Below, piece after piece: positions 57 to 6,739 of a DNA stretch of 6,739 bases (positions within the stretch are counted from its first letter, which is position 1; each line of letters starts with the position of its first letter). This stretch comes from Escherichia coli (GTDB lineage: Bacteria; Pseudomonadota; Gammaproteobacteria; Enterobacterales; Enterobacteriaceae): the NCBI RefSeq assembly GCF_003334255.1, contig NZ_QOWU01000099.1; one strand, written 5' to 3'. Both the position numbers and the translations under genes were made by a program. The notes under the pieces were generated by a model, which was given only the letters and a program-made list of their open reading frames with translations, did not search any database and was not told the DNA's origin.

Positions 57-100
57 GGTGAAAAAAGACAAAACCCCGCGCACCGGAAAGGTGGCGGGGG
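57..100 (-). terminator. Rho-independent terminator, minus strand
   Basis: GC-rich hairpin: 74-79 pairs with 94-99 and 81-84 pairs with 90-93, with one bulged G at 80 and a 5-nt loop GGAAA. On the minus strand it is followed by TTTTGTCTTTTTT (reverse complement of 61-73). The plus strand has no T-tract after the stem, so it is unidirectional. Confidence 0.5.
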
Positions 101-163
101 ATTCACGGAGATAATATCTGTCTGAAATTGTTTTGAATCGATGGGATTGTTGCGTATTAACAT

Positions 164-204
164 GAAGGAGATCAGGACTTATCCGTTACTGGGTGATCTC
201 CTTC
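164..204. repeat. 11-bp perfect inverted repeat GAAGGAGATCA / TGATCTCCTTC with 19-nt loop
   Basis: 164-174 is the exact reverse complement of 194-204. Pairing can extend to 161-163 with 206-208 if C205 is bulged. The arm contains an SD-like AAGGAG and a GATC site. Confidence 0.8.
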
Positions 205-1199
205 CATGAAAATACGCCGTTATTGTTAAACAGCAGGCTGATTTCTCCGTAAAGGGGAAAATATTTATCGGCTGCATGATTATCAGGTGTGTCTGTGTTT
301 ACTGCTGTGAGTATTTTTCAGAGTATTGTGGGGGAGATGTCAGTGGGAGATATTAAATTTACGTTTATAATTATCTTACTTCTTCTGTGTGTTTTTTATA
401 AGAGTGCACACGTAATGATATCTGTTGATACCATGTGGTTAAGTGTTTCCCTTCCTGGTCATGCGTAATGATTAAATGCTTTTGTGACACCATTCTTCCG
501 GTCTGAATATTTATCCCGTTCTTTTTTATTTGTGCAGTGATACTGTCGGAAGAGAATTCAGTAATGTGAGGTGTCCTGGTCAGGATAATATCTGCTGAGA
601 TATTATTAGTTGAGAGTGTTTTTACTGAGCAAAAGCTGGCTTTTAATTCCTGTACTGAAACGCTGTCGCTCGTCCGGGGTTAACTGAAACTGGATGATGA
701 TGTAAAATGAAGGCTGTTTTTGTGTTTGTCGAAGAAGTGTTATTTTAATCCATTCTCATCATTGGCTGGCGATTATACAGAAGTATTTGAAGAAAAAATG
801 GTGCATTTTATCTGCGTCAGCAGGGAGGAAGTATTTTATTGATGTATCAGTATTAAATGGTTTTTGTTATTTATAAATATGTCATCCTGTCCATAGAATA
901 TTGTACTCAGCATTCAGTGCAGGAACTGTAGTCTTCTTTATTTTATTCTTCTTCAGGAGGGGGGGATTCCTGAAGGCGTTATTCCCGGTGTTCTGTTTAT
1001 GATTCTTCCCGGCAGGAAACCGGTATCTGCAATACCCGGGATGATGCTTTTTGTTCGTACGTGGTTGTGTAAAATTTGAATAGTGGATGTGCTCTGAAGG
1101 GAAGGAGGGGACACACAGATTCATTTTGTCTTTCTTCAGCAGCAAAACACACTGTGGTTATTATTTAACCATTAAATCAACAAAAATTTTTACCTCATA

Positions 1200-1227
1200 T
1201 TGATTTGACTGCTATTTTTGCTATTAA
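1200..1227 (+). promoter_or_regulatory. candidate sigma70 promoter for the yfjI-like gene
   Basis: TTGATT at 1200-1205 (4/6 to TTGACA), 16-bp spacer, TATTAA at 1222-1227 (4/6 to TATAAT), about 45 nt upstream of ATG 1274. Called by eye in AT-rich DNA, where such matches are common. Confidence 0.25.
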
Positions 1228-1273
1228 TAGCCAGAATTGCAGTGCTTTTATATCTGTGTGTAGTGAGGTTACT

Positions 1274-2758
1274 ATGTCATTCGGTCAGCCTTGTGATGAG
1301 TTTCCCCTGAGTTCGCTGCCTCCACTCATTCGTGATGCCGTTATTGAAGCTCAGCAAATTACGCAGGCTCCCCTTGGGCTTGTGGCAGCGTCTGTCCTGG
1401 GCGCTGTTTCACTTGTCTGCCAGAATCTGATTGATGTCTGCAGACTGAATACACTGCGGGGGCCGGTCTCTCTTTTTTTCCTGACGCTTGCCGAGTCCGG
1501 AGAACGAAAAACCGCAGTGGACAAATTATTAATGAAGCCCCTGTACCAGCAGGAGATGCAGTTATATTCCAGATACAAAAGTGAACTGGCTGTCTGGAAA
1601 AACAAGGAAGAGCTTTTAAAGGCTCAGAAAAAAGCATTGTTGTCAAAACTGAATAAAGAACTCCGCAAAGGCGCGGATGAGTCAGAAACCCTCAGACAAC
1701 TGGAAGTACTTCAGAAAAACAGTGCGGAAGAACCTGTGAGGTATAAATTCATTTTTAATGATGCCACGACTGCGGCAATTAAGAATCAGCTTTGTGGTAA
1801 ATGGCGTTCAGTGGGTATTATGTCAGATGAAGCCGGTATTATATTTGATGGATATACCCTGTCTGAGTTGCCTTTTATTAACAAAATGTGGGATGGCTCT
1901 GTATTGTCGGTGGACAGAAAGAATGAACCCGAACAGATGATTGAAAATGCCAGAATGACGTTATCCCTCATGGTGCAACCCGGTCTTTTTGACCGATATA
2001 TGGAGCGAAAAGGTTCTGTTGCCAGGGACAGTGGTTTTCTTGCCCGTTGTCTTATCAGTAAACCTGCAACCACGCAGGGGAAACGCTTTATTAACGGAGC
2101 TGTGATTCCGGGAGGATCATTAACGGCATTTCATGAACGATTAATGGAACTGGCCAGAGGCAGTATTGAAAAATCCAGTGAGGATGAACGGTATTGTCTG
2201 CATTTTTCGCCTGAAGCGCAAAAAATATTTATTGAGCACTATAATGTTCTGGAGCAGGATTTATCCCCTTCCGGACCCTTAAGCCCGTTTCGGGGACATG
2301 TTTCAAAAAAAACAGAAAACATTGCAAGAATTGCAGCGTTATTTCAGTATTTCAGCTATGGTGAAGGGAAAATCTCTGCCGATATCATGACGTCTGCTGT
2401 CGTAATAAGTTCGTGGTACACAGATGAATATAAAAAATTATTTGCGTTACCTGATGAATCTGAACTGCAGCAGAAGGACGCCGAGGAGCTGTTCGACTGG
2501 CTCATTGAGGAGTGCCGCGGAGAATGCCCGCCCCGTGTCAGGAAAAATTATATTCTCCAGTGTGGCCCGGGCCGGTTCAGAAACAGGAAAAAACTGAACG
2601 CATTGCTGAACATTCTTGAATCTCAGTTCAGGCTTTCTGTCGTGCCGGAAGGAAAAACCATGTATGTTCTGCTTCCCCAGATAGCCAGTTTAAAGTTGTC
2701 TGATGTCTCAGGTATTTTTACCTCGGGTTATCACTACAATAAGCTGAGAGCGAAGTAA
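1274..2758 (+). CDS. yfjI: DUF3987 / YfjI-family protein, 494 aa
   Basis: Longest ORF in the window (track 1205..2758, which begins at TTG). I place the start at ATG 1274 because GAGG at 1265-1268 sits 5 nt upstream. The N-terminus (FPLSSLPPLIRDAVIEAQQITQAPLGLVAASVLGAVSLV ... LTLAESGERKTAV) matches the pattern I recall for DUF3987/YfjI proteins, including the SGERK[ST] motif. Family call is from memory, not a search; the symbol is family-level, not a claim of orthology. Confidence 0.8.
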   Translation: MSFGQPCDEFPLSSLPPLIRDAVIEAQQITQAPLGLVAASVLGAVSLVCQNLIDVCRLNTLRGPVSLFFLTLAESGERKTAVDKLLMKPLYQQEMQLYSRYKSELAVWKNKEELLKAQKKALLSKLNKELRKGADESETLRQLEVLQKNSAEEPVRYKFIFNDATTAAIKNQLCGKWRSVGIMSDEAGIIFDGYTLSELPFINKMWDGSVLSVDRKNEPEQMIENARMTLSLMVQPGLFDRYMERKGSVARDSGFLARCLISKPATTQGKRFINGAVIPGGSLTAFHERLMELARGSIEKSSEDERYCLHFSPEAQKIFIEHYNVLEQDLSPSGPLSPFRGHVSKKTENIARIAALFQYFSYGEGKISADIMTSAVVISSWYTDEYKKLFALPDESELQQKDAEELFDWLIEECRGECPPRVRKNYILQCGPGRFRNRKKLNALLNILESQFRLSVVPEGKTMYVLLPQIASLKLSDVSGIFTSGYHYNKLRAK

Positions 2759-2817
2759 CCGGTGAGCAGTTTTTCTCCATTATGCTTCAGACTTAGATGA
2801 TTGATTATTATGGGGAT

Positions 2818-2857
2818 TTCATCACCGATATTCAGATGTATGAATATCGGTGATGAA
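2818..2857. repeat. 17-bp perfect inverted repeat with 6-bp spacer (TTCATCACCGATATTCA-GATGTA-TGAATATCGGTGATGAA)
   Basis: 2818-2834 is the exact reverse complement of 2841-2857; the spacer is 2835-2840. It lies between the convergent 3' ends of the yfjI-like gene (stop 2758) and the 197-aa gene (stop 3096). The stem is AT-rich and no T-tract follows on either strand, so it is not a classic intrinsic terminator. Confidence 0.9.
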
Positions 2858-3095
2858 CTAAAGCTCAGGAGCTGCGTGGTGGTGATGAATCAACAGGCAT
2901 ATAACTGATACCCGCCGGTCAGAAGTTCCAGCCTGCGACTTTCCTGTCTGCGTGCCCGCAGTCCGGCGTTCAGGTGCAGCGTGTGACAGAACGCACGGAG
3001 AGCGAAACGGCAGGCAGACAGGCCGTTCAGTCAGCCCTGGCACCCTGCCCGGATACCAGCTTCCCTGAAACAACTGGCATCAGGTGCGCTTATCG

Positions 3096-3689
3096 TCAAC
3101 CGTTGTGCGGTATGCCAGGAGCAACGTACTGATCCATCAGATCCGTCAGTGCTGCGCTCTGCTTCTGACGGTTGATGATCCATTCCTCCAGCTCTTTTTC
3201 TGATTTCCGTTTCAGATTCTCCGTCCAGTCGTCAAGGCAGTTTCCGGTCATTAAATCAAGCCAGCAAAGCCAGACCAGTTTGAGGCGCAACTCCGTGCCA
3301 CCAAACTGACGGAAGAGGCTAATCAGTTTATTTGCCAGAGAACGCTGCCTCAGACGTTCACATTCAGACAGGAGAATGCCTTCCAGCATCGGATGATGAA
3401 CCAGCAGATGTTCACTGGTGCATAAATTCACGATCAGATCATCATCCAGGGGCGGCGTGGCCCGTTTGTCAGGGCCATAAATCAGCCGGTGCAGGCTCTG
3501 GGGTACGATGGCAATCTCCGGTTTTTCACCATTGAATGACACCCACCCGGGCGTCAGATTATGGAAGTAGTAGATATTCGGATGACACACGCCCCAGGAT
3601 ACGGCGTGCCGGGTGAAGCCGGTCAGCCATTTCTGGTAGCTTTCGTGGAGCAGCTCGTAACGGGTCTGATACTGTGGTTTCATTTTCAT
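3096..3689 (-). CDS. hypothetical protein, 197 aa, unknown function, immediately downstream of alpA
   Basis: Track ORF 3096..3830 (-). The first 47 codons are low-complexity and overlap the alpA 3' end, so I trim to the internal MKMKPQYQ start. GAGGA (reverse complement of 3692-3696) lies 2-3 nt before ATG 3689 and 8-9 nt before ATG 3683, so 3683 is an equally plausible start. The body is protein-like, but I recognise no family or catalytic motif. Confidence 0.7.
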   Translation of the reverse strand: MKMKPQYQTRYELLHESYQKWLTGFTRHAVSWGVCHPNIYYFHNLTPGWVSFNGEKPEIAIVPQSLHRLIYGPDKRATPPLDDDLIVNLCTSEHLLVHHPMLEGILLSECERLRQRSLANKLISLFRQFGGTELRLKLVWLCWLDLMTGNCLDDWTENLKRKSEKELEEWIINRQKQSAALTDLMDQYVAPGIPHNG

Positions 3690-3710
3690 ATTCCTCACGG
3701 GGGATAACAG

Positions 3711-3752
3711 GCAGCAGAACGCCGCCGGCAGGCCGGAGACTGCGTCTGCTGC
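3711..3752 (-). promoter_or_regulatory. GC-rich intergenic hairpin between alpA and the downstream 197-aa gene
   Basis: GCAGCAGA at 3711-3718 pairs with TCTGCTGC at 3745-3752; the stem can extend to about 11 bp with one bulge, and the loop holds a CCGGC/GCCGG sub-palindrome. No U-tract follows on the minus strand, so read-through into the 197-aa gene is likely. Confidence 0.35.
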
Positions 3753-3769
3753 AGATGAACGGTTAAGAA

Positions 3770-3976
3770 TTACGGACGGGACTGTGCAATACGCGCCTGC
3801 AGCCAGGCTTCCACTTCGCTTTTCAGCCATCGGGAGCTGCGGCCCAGCTTGATGGGCGCAGGAAAGTCACCATCCTTGATGAGTTTGTAAAACCACTTAT
3901 CGGTCAGGCCGGTCAGTTGAGTGATAAATGCCATGTCGACCATCTGGTCATCCATCAGTGAAACTGGGGTGATCAT
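3770..3976 (-). CDS. alpA: AlpA-family phage-type transcriptional regulator (excisionase-like DNA-binding protein), 68 aa
   Basis: Track ORF 3770..4048 (-), trimmed to the internal ATG at 3976, which is preceded by GGAGG (reverse complement of 3986-3990) with a 9-nt spacer. The sequence FITQLTGLTDKWFYKLIKDGDFPAPIKLGRSSRWLKSEVEAWLQARI matches the AlpA family pattern (TGL...W.Y.LI..G.FP.PIKLG.R...W...EVE.WL) and the size is typical. Confidence 0.8.
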   Translation of the reverse strand: MITPVSLMDDQMVDMAFITQLTGLTDKWFYKLIKDGDFPAPIKLGRSSRWLKSEVEAWLQARIAQSRP

Positions 3977-4102
3977 GAGAATGTTCCTCCGGATGTTGTT
4001 AAACCAGCCGGTGTGGTCATGAAAACAACGCACCACCTTCACCGGCATAACAACCGGGGAGAAACGTAAAAAATAATCGGGAATGTGACCGCCAGGAGAT
4101 AA

Positions 4103-4120
4103 ACGGGGAGGTTACGGTGG
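4103..4120 (+). repeat. direct repeat copy 1: ACGGGGAGGTTACGGTGG
   Basis: 17 of 18 positions identical to copy 2 at 4248-4265. Flanks show weaker similarity (AGCCGTACC versus AGCCCGTGCC), giving about 35 bp of imperfect repeat. Each copy can form a GGTTACGG / CCGT(A/G)CC stem. Located 130-290 bp upstream of the alpA start, on the promoter side. Confidence 0.8.
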
Positions 4121-4247
4121 CTGAGCCGTACCGGTATGCCGGGTGGTTGTTACGAAACGATGCTTCCGCACGCGCGCGCTATAAAGAAGGGATGATTTTC
4201 GTGAGGAAGAGGGGAAAACTGGCGTTCTGATAATTGCAGAGTTATTT

Positions 4248-4265
4248 ACGGGGCGGTTACGGTGG
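4248..4265 (+). repeat. direct repeat copy 2: ACGGGGCGGTTACGGTGG
   Basis: Second copy of the 18-bp element, 145 bp from copy 1, with a single mismatch (A/C at position 7). Confidence 0.8.
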
Positions 4266-5196
4266 GGCAGCCCGTGCCTTGTGGGCAGGGACAGGTATCA
4301 CTGGTGGGATAAGGCTGTCTGATTGGTATTATAAATATAAGAAGTTATCAGAGAGTAACGTAAAGGATTTGCCAGAATAACCTAAGAGAGTAAATCTCTC
4401 CGGTAACAGAGCGCTGTGAAGCATTCTGTATCAGAGTGCAAATACATGAACGCTGATGCGTAAAATCAGCAGTGACACGCCAGCTCCCCCTGTGCCCATT
4501 CCTGTATAAGACATGAACTGAGCGTATTAATGCTCCTGCCCTGAGACTGAGCCGGTGAGTGAGGGGCTGAGAAATCCCTCTTGACACTGCTCTAAACCAG
4601 AAATACTTCCCCGGTTGTTGCGGTGCGTCCGGATCCCCGATAACGGAACACTAAGGCTGTATTGCGGGACACCAGGTAAGTGGCAGCCCGTAATACGTCA
4701 GGAGACGCGGGAAAAGTGAATTCCCACACGCGTTATAAACTTACCCTAGCGGAGCTGGAAGCCTTTAACTCTGCCGTTGACAACCGGCTGGCAGAACTAA
4801 CCATGAACAAACTTTACGATCGCGTTCCGGCTTCTGTCCGGAAATATGTCACCTGAACGTTCGGTAATCACAGCGGTATTGCGCCAGGTGTTATCTGCTC
4901 TGTGTGATTCTTTTTAGGGTTTCTCAGATTGTTAAAAGCTGAATATGTTCCTGTTGTCGGGAACCAGGATAATACAGGGAACATTAAGCGGTATAGCGAC
5001 AACAAAGCATTCGAAATCAAAAGGGAATGGTGTACGGAGTTGTGGGCAGTAATGGGCCGATTTTCGGGCATTACCGATCTCTGTTGAGGTTTTCTCGTAT
5101 TTGCCGGGGATCCGGTGCGTTACTGTCTGGCACAGCAAACGCAGAGGTGGCGGGGCGCTCTGCTCCGCTGATTCCGGATAATCCCTCCCCTGTAAC

Positions 5197-5394
5197 CTAC
5201 GGCAACAGTACAAATACACTGACGCCTGAAACGACAGCCAGAATCAGCACAGGCAGTAACGTCAGTAGACAAAGCAGACGATCGGTATTCCGGTAATAAT
5301 CGAAGGGATCTGCTGACACGTAGCCCGGGCAACATTCCGTATTATGAGGGATGGCGTTATCACAATCCCTGCACACCGTTTTGCGTATCACCAT
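5197..5394 (-). CDS. candidate small protein, 65 aa, Cys-rich N-terminus and hydrophobic C-terminal segment
   Basis: Track ORF 5197..5397 (-). Minus-strand sequence upstream reads TTGTGAGGAGGACGTG-ATG: a strong AGGAGG core 5 nt before ATG 5394. Product MVIRKTVCRDCDNAIPHNTECCPGYVSADPFDYYRNTDRLLCLLTLLPVLILAVVSGVSVFVLLP has CxxC-x9-CC followed by a ~25-residue hydrophobic stretch. It overlaps other short ORFs in a messy region, so the coding status is uncertain. Confidence 0.3.
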   Translation of the reverse strand: MVIRKTVCRDCDNAIPHNTECCPGYVSADPFDYYRNTDRLLCLLTLLPVLILAVVSGVSVFVLLP

Positions 5395-5488
5395 CACGTC
5401 CTCCTCACAATCTTATCCGTAACCGGCTTTTTGCATTAAAAAAACAACGCTGAAAATTCAGCCGTCAGTCCGGAGACGACAGTCGGGT

Positions 5489-5597: not shown

Positions 5598-6167
5598 ATG
5601 ACCTACAAATGCAACCCCTTCTGGCAGCAACGTATTCGTGAGACGGTGCTGCACGCACTGGATGTTCATCCCCGTCTGACGGCATTGCGGGTTGATCTGC
5701 GTCTCCCGGATGTACCGGCAGCAACGGACGCGGCTGTGATATCCCGCTTCATCAATGCCCTGAAAGCCCGAATCGACGCTTACCAGAAACGTAAGCATCG
5801 GGAAGATAAACGCGTGCATTCCTCGACCCTGCATTACGCCTGGGCCAGGGAGTTCGGGGAGCTTAAAGGCAAAAAACACTATCAACTGCTGCTGCTGGTC
5901 AACCGGGATACCTGGTGTCGTGCAGGCGATTACCGCGCTCCGGGGTCACTGGCCGGGATGATTAAACAGGCCTGGTGCAGTGCCCTGGGGGTGGATGCCG
6001 GATGTTATGCCACGCTGGTGCATTTTCCGGTCAGGCCGGCGGTGTGGCTGGAACGCGATGATGATGCTGGTTTACGGGATATGCTGAAGCGTGCTGACTA
6101 TCTCGCGAAAGAGTACACCAAAGTCAACGGTACCGGTGAGCGCAATTTTGGCTGTAGCCGGAGTTGA
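5598..6167 (+). CDS. YagK/YfjJ-family protein (inovirus Gp2-like), 189 aa
   Basis: ORF 5598..6167 with GGAG at 5586-5589 and an 8-nt spacer to the ATG. Motifs RVDLRLP, VISRFINALKARI, HYAWAREF, HYQLLLLVNRD, LVHFP and the C-terminal NFGCS match what I recall of E. coli YagK/YfjJ proteins. Family call is from memory, not a search. Confidence 0.75.
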   Translation: MTYKCNPFWQQRIRETVLHALDVHPRLTALRVDLRLPDVPAATDAAVISRFINALKARIDAYQKRKHREDKRVHSSTLHYAWAREFGELKGKKHYQLLLLVNRDTWCRAGDYRAPGSLAGMIKQAWCSALGVDAGCYATLVHFPVRPAVWLERDDDAGLRDMLKRADYLAKEYTKVNGTGERNFGCSRS

Positions 6168-6425
6168 ACACGACAGGCGCACCAATACCCGGCAAACCAA
6201 AAGTATGGGTTGTTGTCTGGCGGCAACGATGTATCCACTCGCCCACTGACTGTTTTTTACGTCAGTGTTCCATTGTGTGACAACCACAGTGCTGTAACAG
6301 CAACCAGCCTGCTTTACCCAAACTCCAGTCCAGATTTTAACTGAACCGCCATTCACACCTGACCACACTGCCCGTACCGGGACGGCTGTTGCCTGCGTGT
6401 CGTCTGGCGGCTGAGGAATATGACT

Positions 6426-6739
6426 ATGTACGCTAAATCCTTTCTCGCACTTGATGGCAACGGGCGTCTGACGGGTGCCCGTACCGCACAGACTGCACCT
6501 TACGATCGCTACACTTGCCACCTCTGCGGCAGTGCGCTCAGATACCACCCGCAATACGACACTGAGCGTCCCTGGTTTGAACACACTGACGACGGGCTGA
6601 CAGCGCACGGTCAGCAGTGTCCTTATGTCAGACCGGAACGCAGGGAGGTACGCTTGATTAAGCGTCTGCAGCAATTCGTACCGGATGCCTTACCCGTGGT
6701 GCGTAAAGCCAGCTGGCACTGCAGACAATGTCACCACGA
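6426..6739 (+). CDS. Zn-ribbon protein, 5' part only (truncated by window edge), CoiA-like N-terminal pattern
   Basis: Reading frame open from ATG 6426 to the window end (104 codons, no stop). GAGGA at 6413-6417 gives an 8-nt spacer to ATG 6426; the ATG at 6420 is too close to it. The translation MYAKSFLALDGNGRLTGARTAQTAPYDRYTCHLCGSALRYHP..RPWFEHTDDG...CPYV...WHCRQCHH has CxxC, WFEH and a second CxxC, resembling the CoiA-type N-terminal zinc finger (CxxC ... HFxH ... C). Resemblance is by eye. Confidence 0.6.
   Translation, partial: MYAKSFLALDGNGRLTGARTAQTAPYDRYTCHLCGSALRYHPQYDTERPWFEHTDDGLTAHGQQCPYVRPERREVRLIKRLQQFVPDALPVVRKASWHCRQCHH

Follow-up and report, generated by a model that had tools for sequence, protein, structure and literature searches.

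A standalone YfjI-family protein with a conserved variant P-loop in a widespread Escherichia coli island

Introduction

Does the yfjI-type gene of this Escherichia coli island encode an ATPase, and does its separation from alpA set the island apart? Both questions arise from a 6,739-nucleotide stretch of contig NZ_QOWU01000099.1, referred to here in its full length as the window. An earlier note on this DNA had described a YfjI-like protein with a "degenerate" Walker A motif, hinting at an NTPase-like fold, and had taken the distance between yfjI and alpA as a sign that the island backbone is rearranged.

DUF3987, the family in question, has been assigned to superfamily 6 (SF6), as MCM-related proteins with a C-terminal wHTH and an association with primases (PMC4889955, PMC5862659). 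Its classification as MCM-like helicases dates from 2016, and biochemical characterization is available for one member: AgaPH, a PriCT-DUF3987 helicase from an integrase-bearing Seonamhaeicola mobile element, which unwinds DNA in an ATP-dependent manner with 5'-3' polarity, is inactivated by the Walker A change K213A and the Walker B change E297Q, and is the only DUF3987 member for which such unwinding has been demonstrated (PMC11724360).

Results

The gene and its product are as follows.

1274 to 2758, + strand: yfjI-type gene, encoding a 494-aa DUF3987 / SF6 (MCM-like AAA+) helicase-family protein with a C-terminal winged helix

The open reading frame runs from an ATG at 1274 to a stop at 2758, with a GAGG Shine-Dalgarno sequence about 8 nt 5' of the start, and has a GC content of 45.1%, against 52.6% for the remainder of the window. 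The proposed DUF3987/YfjI identity was borne out by a full-length Pfam match (PF13148, E 1.9e-95), in which residues 31-391 correspond to model positions 1-363 of 364. The product is identical to the RefSeq "YfjI family protein" WP_001297234.1 at 493 of 494 residues (99.8%), and it is also matched by PHROG 2373 ("DNA helicase") with an E value of 1.9e-82. An NCBIfam search returned a sole match, a spurious sub-threshold coiled-coil hit to MscM, and PADLOC returned no match. YfjI thus belongs to the DUF3987 (YfjI) family as a standalone protein, and the family assignment is already in its annotation.

A primase of the AEP or DnaG type, fused or adjacent, is a frequent but not an essential companion in the family: 30 of the best 149 representatives are fused to Toprim, Prim-Pol, PriCT or other primase domains. 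The Pfam search found no primase domain in YfjI itself, no primase is encoded in the window, and none is annotated within 12 kb on either side in a near-identical locus (L001), so no full replication module is apparent there.

Two segments are candidates for the nucleotide-binding site.

1490 to 1513, + strand: variant Walker A motif (P-loop), A73-E-S-G-E-R-K-T80, with Arg78 at the canonical Gly position, as placed by an AF2 model and homologue columns
1811 to 1837, + strand: Walker B segment VGIMSDEAG, residues 180-188, modeled as strand 179-184 followed by D185-E186

Both motifs named in the earlier note are present, SGERKT (tcc gga gaa cga aaa acc) at nt 1496-1513, residues S75-T80, and VGIMSDEAG at nt 1811-1837; D185-E186 corresponds to nt 1826-1831 and the candidate catalytic glutamate, E186, to nt 1829-1831. 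A loose Walker-A-like pattern arose in 6% of shuffled YfjI sequences (0.4% when a preceding hydrophobic strand is required) and hhhhDE in 10.6%, while the two together, in the right order and spacing, arose in 5e-5 of shuffles. The decisive support for these putative Walker motifs is conservation, with K79 kept in 114/114 and E186 in 113/114 homologues.

Strictly, YfjI does not carry the canonical Walker A motif (GxxxxGK[ST]), as Arg78 rather than Gly precedes the lysine. Among 114 aligned standalone YfjI homologues (31-52% identity range), the P-loop columns contain A in 99, S in 107, G in 111, E in 99, R in 108, K in 114 and S/T in 114. Because Arg78 is thus the norm for the family, the loop is a variant rather than a canonical one. 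SGERK, arginine included, is invariant in 30/30 primase fusions, and a phage "DNA primase/helicase" that is 28% identical to YfjI carries AEPSERKS. To judge from these columns, [AG]xSGERK[ST] is the consensus of the YfjI branch, including the primase-helicase fusions, and represents a conserved variant, not decay; the description of the motif as degenerate does not hold. P-loops of the MCM and MoxR types also lack a Gly before the Lys (motif GxxGxAKS), MCM having Ala or Ser there. At the Walker B segment, D185 is poorly conserved, being D in 67/114 homologues and otherwise S, N or A.

The AF2 model of YfjI (pLDDT 93.1, pTM 0.89) supported the suggested NTPase-like fold. It places a strand (68-72), a loop (73-78) and a helix beginning at K79 around the P-loop, and a strand leading into the DE pair. 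The model predicts an MCM-like AAA+ core with a winged helix at its C-terminal side, a fold that is SF6 / MCM-like in that the core is most similar to that of MCM and has a beta-hairpin before sensor-1. In addition to these features, YfjI shares a lid with the archaeal MCM and eukaryotic MCM2-7 helicases. It differs from them in having no N-terminal OB-fold/zinc domain, the AAA+ core starting by residue about 50, and in an insertion following the P-loop helix, where residues 79-148 form a long helical hairpin. At the sequence level, neither Pfam MCM nor any PDB chain matches YfjI: PDB sequence searches with the single protein and with a family profile found no relatives, and the equivalence of MCM motifs is therefore not readable from sequence alignment. 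Comparing the family profile with the single E. coli RavA and YifB sequences in hhalign gave no significant result (probabilities <1%); the YifB alignment placed AeSGERKS over GPPGTGKT, which we did not count as evidence.

Further active-site candidates come from the conserved columns and the model.

1976 to 1978, + strand: Q235, candidate sensor-1 by analogy with MCM, at the end of strand 227-234 (ARMTLSLMVQP); Q in 113/114 homologues
2045 to 2047, + strand: R258 in GFLAR-CLIS, candidate arginine finger directly before strand 259-262; 114/114
2327 to 2329, + strand: R352 in ENIARIAAL, inferred candidate sensor-2 of the helical lid, in helix 337-362; 114/114
2534 to 2671, + strand: C-terminal winged-helix-like domain, residues about 421-466

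Invariant across the 114 homologues are K79, G254, R258, G269 and R352, and at least 90% conserved are S75, G76, R78, E186, N203, R215, Q235 and R271. Q235, R258 and R352 lie at the places expected of the sensor-1, arginine finger and sensor-2 residues, respectively, and are likely candidates for them. The first assignment draws, by motif analogy, on the MCM sensor-1 motif A-R-x-S-h-h-A-A-A-N-P, and the second on the MCM "SRFDL" motif.

The genetic setting of yfjI involves a spacer on its 5' side and three genes on its 3' side.

164 to 1273, no strand: gene-free AT-rich 1.1-kb spacer (GC 37.9%) between a divergent GTPase (yeeP/yfjP-like) gene and yfjI
3096 to 3683, - strand: 195-aa ORF, annotated "hypothetical protein", 3' of the alpA-like gene and in the same direction
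3770 to 3976, - strand: alpA-like gene (Phage_AlpA / excisionase-type wHTH; Pfam PF05930, E 2.3e-9), convergent with yfjI
5598 to 6167, + strand: yfjJ-like gene (YagK_YfjJ_C / "inovirus Gp2 family"; RefSeq name, PHROG 25019), the third member of the usual trio

The alpA-like gene, whose product carries the PHROG label "excisionase and transcriptional regulator", ends 1011 nt past the yfjI stop on the opposite strand. The intervening 195-aa ORF had no match in NCBIfam, PHROGs, PADLOC or Pfam. Also lying 3' of yfjI is a perfect 17-nt inverted repeat; a second E. coli allele lacks it, so that it does not belong to the conserved module.

The comparison with K-12 drawn in the earlier note proved accurate, as did the uncoupling of yfjI from alpA in the window. 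In MG1655, alpA (+) ends 129 nt before yfjI (+), which is followed by yfjJ, and the trio lies beside intA; alpA, yfjI and yfjJ also stand in a row in most of the diverse relatives sampled. The window does not have this co-directional adjacent arrangement: its alpA-like gene is convergent and 1 kb downstream, its yfjI is preceded by the 1.1-kb spacer, and its yfjJ-like gene is 2.8 kb away. The proteins have diverged as well, with whole-length identity to K-12 YfjI (b2625, CP4-57 prophage) of 52%, and identities to the CP4-57 counterparts of 25% for AlpA and 37% for YfjJ (E 2e-35). The two YfjI proteins nonetheless share the LAESGERK[ST] and VGIMSDEAG segments, and both loci are P4-like islands with GTPase, DUF932, antirestriction, RadC-like and toxin-antitoxin genes.

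What does not stand is the idea that a rearranged backbone is something special to this locus. Of 5426 complete E. coli genomes, at least 1173 carry the window layout at 97-99% identity, whereas 384 carry the K-12 layout, which makes the former three times commoner. These comparisons mark the window island as an old, separate lineage that is common in E. coli pathogenicity-type islands.

The putative leader of yfjI is AT-rich, as had been noted, but it is not featureless, since a palindrome shared with the alpA-yfjI spacer of K-12 is kept in its last 60 nt. A total of 1858 of the 5426 E. coli genomes contain at least 80% of the spacer. None of the E. coli records inspected annotates a gene at positions 164-1273, no ORF in the spacer is conserved between two alleles, and no degraded alpA was found in it. 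Rfam searches, run over the full window with the gathering threshold and over bases 1-1300 with E values up to 1, gave nothing credible, and a promoter/terminator consensus scan of the sequence performed no better than on shuffles.

1211 to 1240, no strand: palindrome of four hexamers, GCTATT ttt GCTATT|AATAGC cag AATTGC, 34-63 nt 5' of the yfjI start

In its general form, the palindrome spans roughly 30-42 bp and consists of two direct and two inverted GCTATT hexamers with a 9-bp period. A search by DNA pattern alone retrieved 17 genomic loci, in 15 of which it adjoins a yfjI homologue. It is also present in the alpA-yfjI spacer of K-12 and in Edwardsiella, metagenomic and plasmid loci, the versions in K-12 and Shewanella being perfect; phage genomes yielded no copy. 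Across Gamma- and Betaproteobacteria it accompanies yfjI homologues, its symmetry covaries, and its hexamers are conserved where the proteins are only ~30% identical.

We considered several readings of this element. As regards an RNA hairpin, G-T and A-C mismatches are equally frequent (17 vs 19). Given this balance, the lack of a consistent T-run and the conservation of the hexamers, a plain terminator was set aside as the main reading, if not rigorously. An AlpA operator was also rejected: the P. aeruginosa AlpA element, GGGACGN5GGTA (PMC7969949), is unlike the palindrome, and ABE-like motifs lie elsewhere in the window. Our tentative suggestion, which we hold to be rather unlikely as it stands, is that the palindrome serves the YfjI module as a cis-acting site not described before, most plausibly an origin or loading site for the MCM-like helicase, or alternatively a hairpin for the G2P-like YfjJ. 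The origin/loading-site reading takes its cue from SV40 and papillomavirus, whose origins contain inverted pentamer/hexamer arrays.

Discussion

We consider it probable that YfjI is a ring-forming MCM-like (superfamily 6) AAA+ ATPase that couples ATP to DNA unwinding and serves as the replication helicase of its island. AESGERKT would form the ATP-binding P-loop, with K79 contacting the phosphates, and E186 of SDE would be the catalytic Walker B residue. By analogy with AgaPH and the many primase fusions, YfjI most likely unwinds DNA using ATP, and it may do so in replicating a P4-like integrative island once this has been excised. AgaPH belongs to the same Pfam family and has a comparable spacing of Walker A Lys and Walker B Glu (K213/E297, against K79/E186 in YfjI), but it also carries a PriCT domain at its N terminus and is encoded next to a primase-polymerase partner, and neither of these accompanies YfjI in the window. 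Its 5'-3' polarity contrasts with the 3'-5' polarity of MCM. The Cch (DUF927) helicase of staphylococcal SCCmec belongs to another Pfam family, and YfjI is structurally closer to MCM. Gram-negative PICIs have a replication operon headed by alpA. The window locus differs from SaPI/PICI replication modules in that no capsid-hijacking or packaging genes were seen there.

Modules of integrase, AlpA, YfjI and YfjJ recur in diverse bacteria, and YfjI is usually partnered by an excision/transcription factor of the AlpA type and a G2P-like YfjJ protein. The window lineage has all three genes, but they no longer form one operon; yfjI stands alone behind the spacer and keeps only the proximal palindromic element, whose right arm has partly decayed in each of the two E. 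coli alleles.

Such a setting raises the possibility, which we judge unlikely on balance yet worth serious weight, that yfjI is a relic: a gene that keeps its helicase fold, has no job in a scrambled, non-mobile island and is drifting toward a pseudogene, its conservation mostly reflecting recent spread of the island. The uncoupling from alpA and yfjJ and the decay of the palindrome arm are consistent with this. The surrounding island is large and full of IS elements and pseudogenes, E. coli often carries shortened copies of yfjI (for example, a 312-aa cluster of 1667 sequences and a 340-aa cluster of 328) or IS-interrupted ones such as the IS66 insertion in H30, and dN/dS is 0.38 for a pair of E. 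coli alleles whose proteins are 88% identical, which indicates moderate rather than strong constraint; together, these observations are why yfjI may be a relic. On the other hand, that value is clearly below 1, the layout is kept at 91-99% identity in more than 1100 genomes, and the window ORF is intact with every family-invariant residue, even though its nearest non-E. coli relatives are only 52-55% identical.

A standalone helicase-like ATPase might instead have been exapted for a non-replication role, such as anti-phage or plasmid interference, as is the case for other island-borne AAA+ proteins and neighboring CP4-57 genes. YfjI-type genes do lie in islands rich in defense and toxin-antitoxin genes (abpAB and rnlAB in CP4-57; nSTAND, ParDE and a type I restriction system near yfjI homologues in loci L007 and L033), and the window locus offers no primase partner. 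We nevertheless regard exaptation as very improbable: PADLOC did not recognize YfjI, close relatives are fused to primases, and the conserved partners (integrase, AlpA, YfjJ or relaxase) are mobility and replication genes rather than defense effectors. That the Gly-to-Arg change in GK[ST], together with the variable Walker B Asp, abolishes hydrolysis and leaves only a DNA-binding or scaffolding factor is hardly credible, given that the Arg is conserved beside an invariant Lys, the Glu and two Arg in the pattern of an active site under selection, that primase-helicase fusions have the same loop and MCM and MoxR-type relatives also lack this Gly, and that unwinding by AgaPH requires the Walker A Lys (PMC11724360).

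The finding from which we started is correct but ordinary, because the odd P-loop is normal for the family and a common E. coli island has yfjI and alpA apart as its standard arrangement. With the protein already annotated and the gene order standard for a widespread island, it adds little by itself. It does yield two useful corrections: what looked like a degenerate P-loop is a conserved family signature, which calls for caution in assessing Walker motifs by eye, and K-12 makes an untypical reference for this island backbone. The yfjI-linked palindrome, conserved in sequence and symmetry across Proteobacteria, might matter more. If the origin reading were true, very common "cryptic" islands would carry a recognizable, testable replication origin, and the palindrome would provide a concrete handle on whether abundant P4-like islands replicate autonomously after excision.

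Gene order around yfjI in the window and in related islands

Comparison of the window with K-12 and with related loci supported the earlier view that yfjI is uncoupled from alpA, which lies here on the other strand. The uncoupling is evident from the gene order.

Features of the window (coordinates, strand where recorded, description)
Ends near 44, minus: GTPase gene
164-1273: gene-free spacer of 1.1 kb
1211-1240: palindrome of four GCTATT hexamers just 5′ of the yfjI start, GCTATT-ttt-GCTATT followed by AATAGC-cag-AATTGC
1274-2758, plus: yfjI-type ORF, ATG to stop, 494 aa
3096-3683, minus: 195-aa ORF directly 3′ of the alpA-like gene, same strand
3770-3976, minus: alpA-like gene, Pfam Phage_AlpA (E 2.3e-9), 25% identical to K-12 AlpA
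4680-4856, plus: Hha/YmoA-family gene, 58 aa (nucleoid-associated H-NS co-regulator family)
5197-5397, minus: Cys-rich ORF, 66 aa (CRDCDNAIPHNTECCPGY), flanking the yfjJ-like gene
5598-6167, plus: yfjJ-like gene, 37% identical to K-12 YfjJ
6420-6739, plus: start of a 'putative zinc ribbon / DUF7828' protein gene, flanking the yfjJ-like gene

The 195-aa ORF had no match in Pfam, NCBIfam, PHROGs or PADLOC and is annotated as 'hypothetical' in more than 1000 E. coli genomes. The Cys-rich ORF and the zinc ribbon/DUF7828 start are annotated in relatives, and the window copies gave no family match. The Hha-family gene is part of the island backbone, near AT-rich regions, and survives only as a truncated pseudogene in L011, a second E. 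coli allele of the locus. Between the alpA-like and Hha-like genes we also observed two direct repeats, ACGGGG[A/C]GGTTACGGTGG, at 4103-4127 and 4248-4272 (plus strand, 145 nt apart). Both fit GGGRNG-N5-GGTR and resemble the Pseudomonas aeruginosa AlpA element GGGACGN5GGTA (PMC7969949); this pattern, picked after the repeats were seen, occurs nowhere else in the window (2 matches against an expected 0.23).

In MG1655, intA is followed by alpA (plus), 129 nt, yfjI (plus) and yfjJ (plus), in agreement with the earlier note, which placed yfjI directly 3′ of alpA on the same strand. Our synteny comparison with CP4-57-type islands found this alpA-yfjI-yfjJ adjacency to be absent from the window. 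Diverse relatives share the MG1655 order.

Relative loci (YfjI identity to the window, gene order)
Edwardsiella, 53%: AlpA, DUF3987, YagK_YfjJ_C, GTPase
Two metagenomic loci, 41% and 36%: AlpA directly upstream
SGEGKT-variant locus, identity not recorded: AlpA gene upstream, overlapping
Citrobacter plasmid-borne island, identity not recorded: integrase, further genes, AlpA, YfjI, Gp2-family

Two further loci have small unassigned ORFs 5′ of the YfjI homologue and a convergent YfjJ or MobA relaxase. The suggestion that the island backbone is rearranged stood in part: the layout does differ from that of K-12, but it is not unusual, as one collinear stretch covers 80% or more of window positions 100-4100 in at least 1173 of 5426 complete E. 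coli genomes, against 384 for the K-12 alpA-yfjI-yfjJ block and 1067 for the entire window. The entire window is ~97% identical to many E. coli chromosomes, and in the annotated relative the element belongs to a large pathogenicity-type island that carries Ag43, haemolysin and two-partner secretion genes along with numerous IS elements. YfjI of the window type falls in a cluster apart, with identities from 81% upward in E. coli and dropping to 55% in Dickeya, Yersinia and others, and is an old, separate lineage. The second allele (YfjI 88% identical) has the same layout, a dN/dS of 0.38 over the gene and unchanged motif segments; truncated or IS-interrupted yfjI copies are common.

YfjI is a DUF3987 protein with a conserved P-loop segment

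A GAGG lies ~8 nt 5′ of the yfjI ATG. Direct reading of nt 1496-1513 (tcc-gga-gaa-cga-aaa-acc) gives S75-G-E-R-K-T80, and VGIMSDEAG occupies residues 180-188 (nt 1811-1837). The Pfam search returned DUF3987 as the sole, full-length match (model positions 1-363 of 364, E 1.9e-95) and PHROGs returned family 2373, 'DNA helicase' (E 1.9e-82), while NCBIfam and PADLOC gave no meaningful match. YfjI of the window is one residue away from WP_001297234.1, which is named 'YfjI family protein' in one of the matching chromosomes, and the gene therefore has an existing annotation; the window protein is a known member of a family published as MCM-like helicases. Kazlauskas et al. related DUF3987 to MCM at an HHsearch probability of 98%, described a C-terminal wHTH in the family, reported that it is associated with AEP and DnaG primases, and suggested that its members serve as replicative helicases (PMC4889955); the relation to MCM is also covered in PMC5862659. 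AgaPH, a PriCT-DUF3987 relative, oligomerises, binds a primase-polymerase partner and unwinds 5′-tailed and forked DNA with ATP or dATP, an activity abolished by K213A (Walker A) and E297Q (Walker B); its authors give Walker A as 'GxxxxGKT/S, with some variation' (PMC11724360).

Chance levels were taken from shuffles of the window YfjI protein. The loose pattern [AG]x4[GR]K[ST] occurred in 6% of shuffles (0.4% with four hydrophobic residues required before it), hhhhDE in 10.6%, and both motifs in correct order and spacing in 5e-5. Neither SGERKT nor hhhhDE singly is above chance, and the deciding evidence is their conservation. With phmmer, 1.84 billion representatives yielded 11,059 relatives at E up to 1e-3; among the best 149 of these (32-47% identical), ~130 have [AG]xSGERK[ST] at the same site and a handful the SGEGK[ST] variant. 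Across 114 aligned standalone homologues, K79, G254, R258, G269 and R352 are invariant and S75 (107), G76 (111), E77 (99), R78 (108), E186 (113), Q235 (113), R215 (113) and R271 (112) nearly so. SGERK is also invariant in 30 long representatives in which DUF3987 is fused to Toprim, Prim-Pol, PriCT_2, BT4734-like, AEP-TOTE or RepB-primase domains, and a Streptococcus phage 'DNA primase/helicase' (28% identity) has AEPSERKS. The segment had been called a degenerate Walker A, a description at odds with the retention of R78 in homologues and fusions alike; this conservation marks Arg at the canonical Gly position as a feature of this DUF3987 branch, not a degeneration. Position 185 is variable (D 67, S 21, N 11, A 9 of 114; Asp 59%) ahead of the conserved Glu, and the acidic P-loop residue E77 is conserved (E 99, D 10) beside a conserved Arg, so this family may contact metal and phosphate in a way that departs from the textbook scheme.

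In an AlphaFold2 model built from the 114-sequence alignment (pLDDT 93.1, pTM 0.89), the SGERKT region adopts the strand-loop-helix topology of a P-loop (strand 68-72, loop A73-R78, helix from K79). At 79-131 this helix is exceptionally long, and together with helix 137-148 it makes a helical hairpin. D185-E186 follow strand 179-184 at the Walker B position, strand 227-234 comes after a beta-hairpin (211-223) and terminates in Q235, G254-R258 precede strand 259-262, R352 lies within a helical lid, and residues 421-466 form a winged-helix-like unit. The NTPase hint drawn from the two motifs is thus upheld by fold and conservation, as the family-level literature already says. A PDB sequence search with YfjI detected no chain, and therefore no solved DUF3987 family member. 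MCM proteins carry GDPGxAKS, ARxSxxAAANP and SRFDL motifs, which AESGERKT, ARMTLSLMVQP and GFLARCLIS of YfjI presumably match in kind and spacing. By this alignment, Q235, R258 and R352 are likely sensor-1, arginine finger and sensor-2, respectively.

Noncoding regions flanking yfjI

GC content is 37.9% in the spacer (164-1273), 45.1% in yfjI and 52.6% in the remaining window. The spacer is found in 1858 E. coli genomes and annotated in none of the E. coli records inspected; it held no ORF conserved between the two E. coli alleles, no alpA remnant and no Rfam family, and a promoter scan of the region upstream of yfjI did not outperform shuffles. One spacer block (~696-894) is 97-98% identical between the alleles with YfjI 88% identical, and the adjacent 398-596 is indel-rich. 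The block had no conserved ORF or Rfam match and may represent either a mosaic produced by recombination or a non-coding element that has escaped annotation. Sixty nt 3′ of the yfjI stop, between convergent genes, 2818-2857 holds an inverted repeat with perfect 17-nt arms around a 6-nt centre (TTCATCACCGATATTCA gatgta TGAATATCGGTGATGAA), bounded by neither an A- nor a T-run; the near-identical annotated relative (L001) shares it and L011 lacks it.

A palindrome is linked to yfjI across genera

The palindrome just 5′ of yfjI has a perfect left arm and a decayed right arm in the window lineage. The same palindrome occurs in the K-12 alpA-yfjI spacer, in Edwardsiella and in a metagenomic locus with YfjI only 36% identical, and 3′ of the helicase gene in one further locus.

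Palindrome copies in relative loci
L002: 5910-5938
L007 (Edwardsiella): 5926-5954
L009: 2626-2654
L014: 2817-2846
L016-L033 (L033, the Citrobacter island)

We searched 100,044 species, each represented by a single genome, for GCTATTNNNGCNATTANTAGCN{2,3}AATAGC, for which a hand estimate from 22 specified bases puts the chance expectation well below one match. The scan found 17 loci, in Escherichia, Enterobacter, Siccibacter, Pectobacterium, Shewanella, Pseudomonas, Rhodoferax and a Burkholderiales MAG, and in 15 of them a YfjI homologue (29-90% identical) lies within ~50-1300 nt. In the remaining two the stored locus ends early; both are in islands, one with a P4-type integrase and the other with RadC. 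The site itself varies, from the alpA-yfjI spacer to upstream of alpA, between divergent alpA and yfjI, or downstream of yfjI.

In 22 copies, 87.6% of cells retain the symmetry versus 79.9% in shuffles (0/500), and the covariation score is 0.242 versus 0.123 (0/500); slid controls gave 27-66% symmetry. The spacer triplets covary (TCT/AGA, TCC/GGA, TTT/AAA, CCT/AGG), one locus has a GCGATT/AATCGC version, and in several loci symmetry reaches 42 bp through flanks unrelated in sequence. An RNA hairpin on one strand is the less favored source of this symmetry, because G-T mismatches (17) are no commoner than A-C mismatches (19), which argues for symmetry at the DNA level. The P. aeruginosa AlpA binding element (PMC7969949) was considered as the identity of the palindrome and bears no resemblance to it, and the exact palindrome sequence was not found in the searchable literature.

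Two distant DUF3987 loci (L005, 77-112; L008, 942-977) are without the GCTATT element and have unrelated perfect palindromes with 16-bp arms and a 4-nt centre, 30-80 nt 5′ of the helicase start. The module may thus generally include a long palindrome, with a clade-specific sequence. The main alternative for the yfjI-linked palindrome is a candidate operator; the most attractive reading is a candidate origin or helicase-loading site. With the yfjI gene itself already known, this palindrome is the sole potentially new element.
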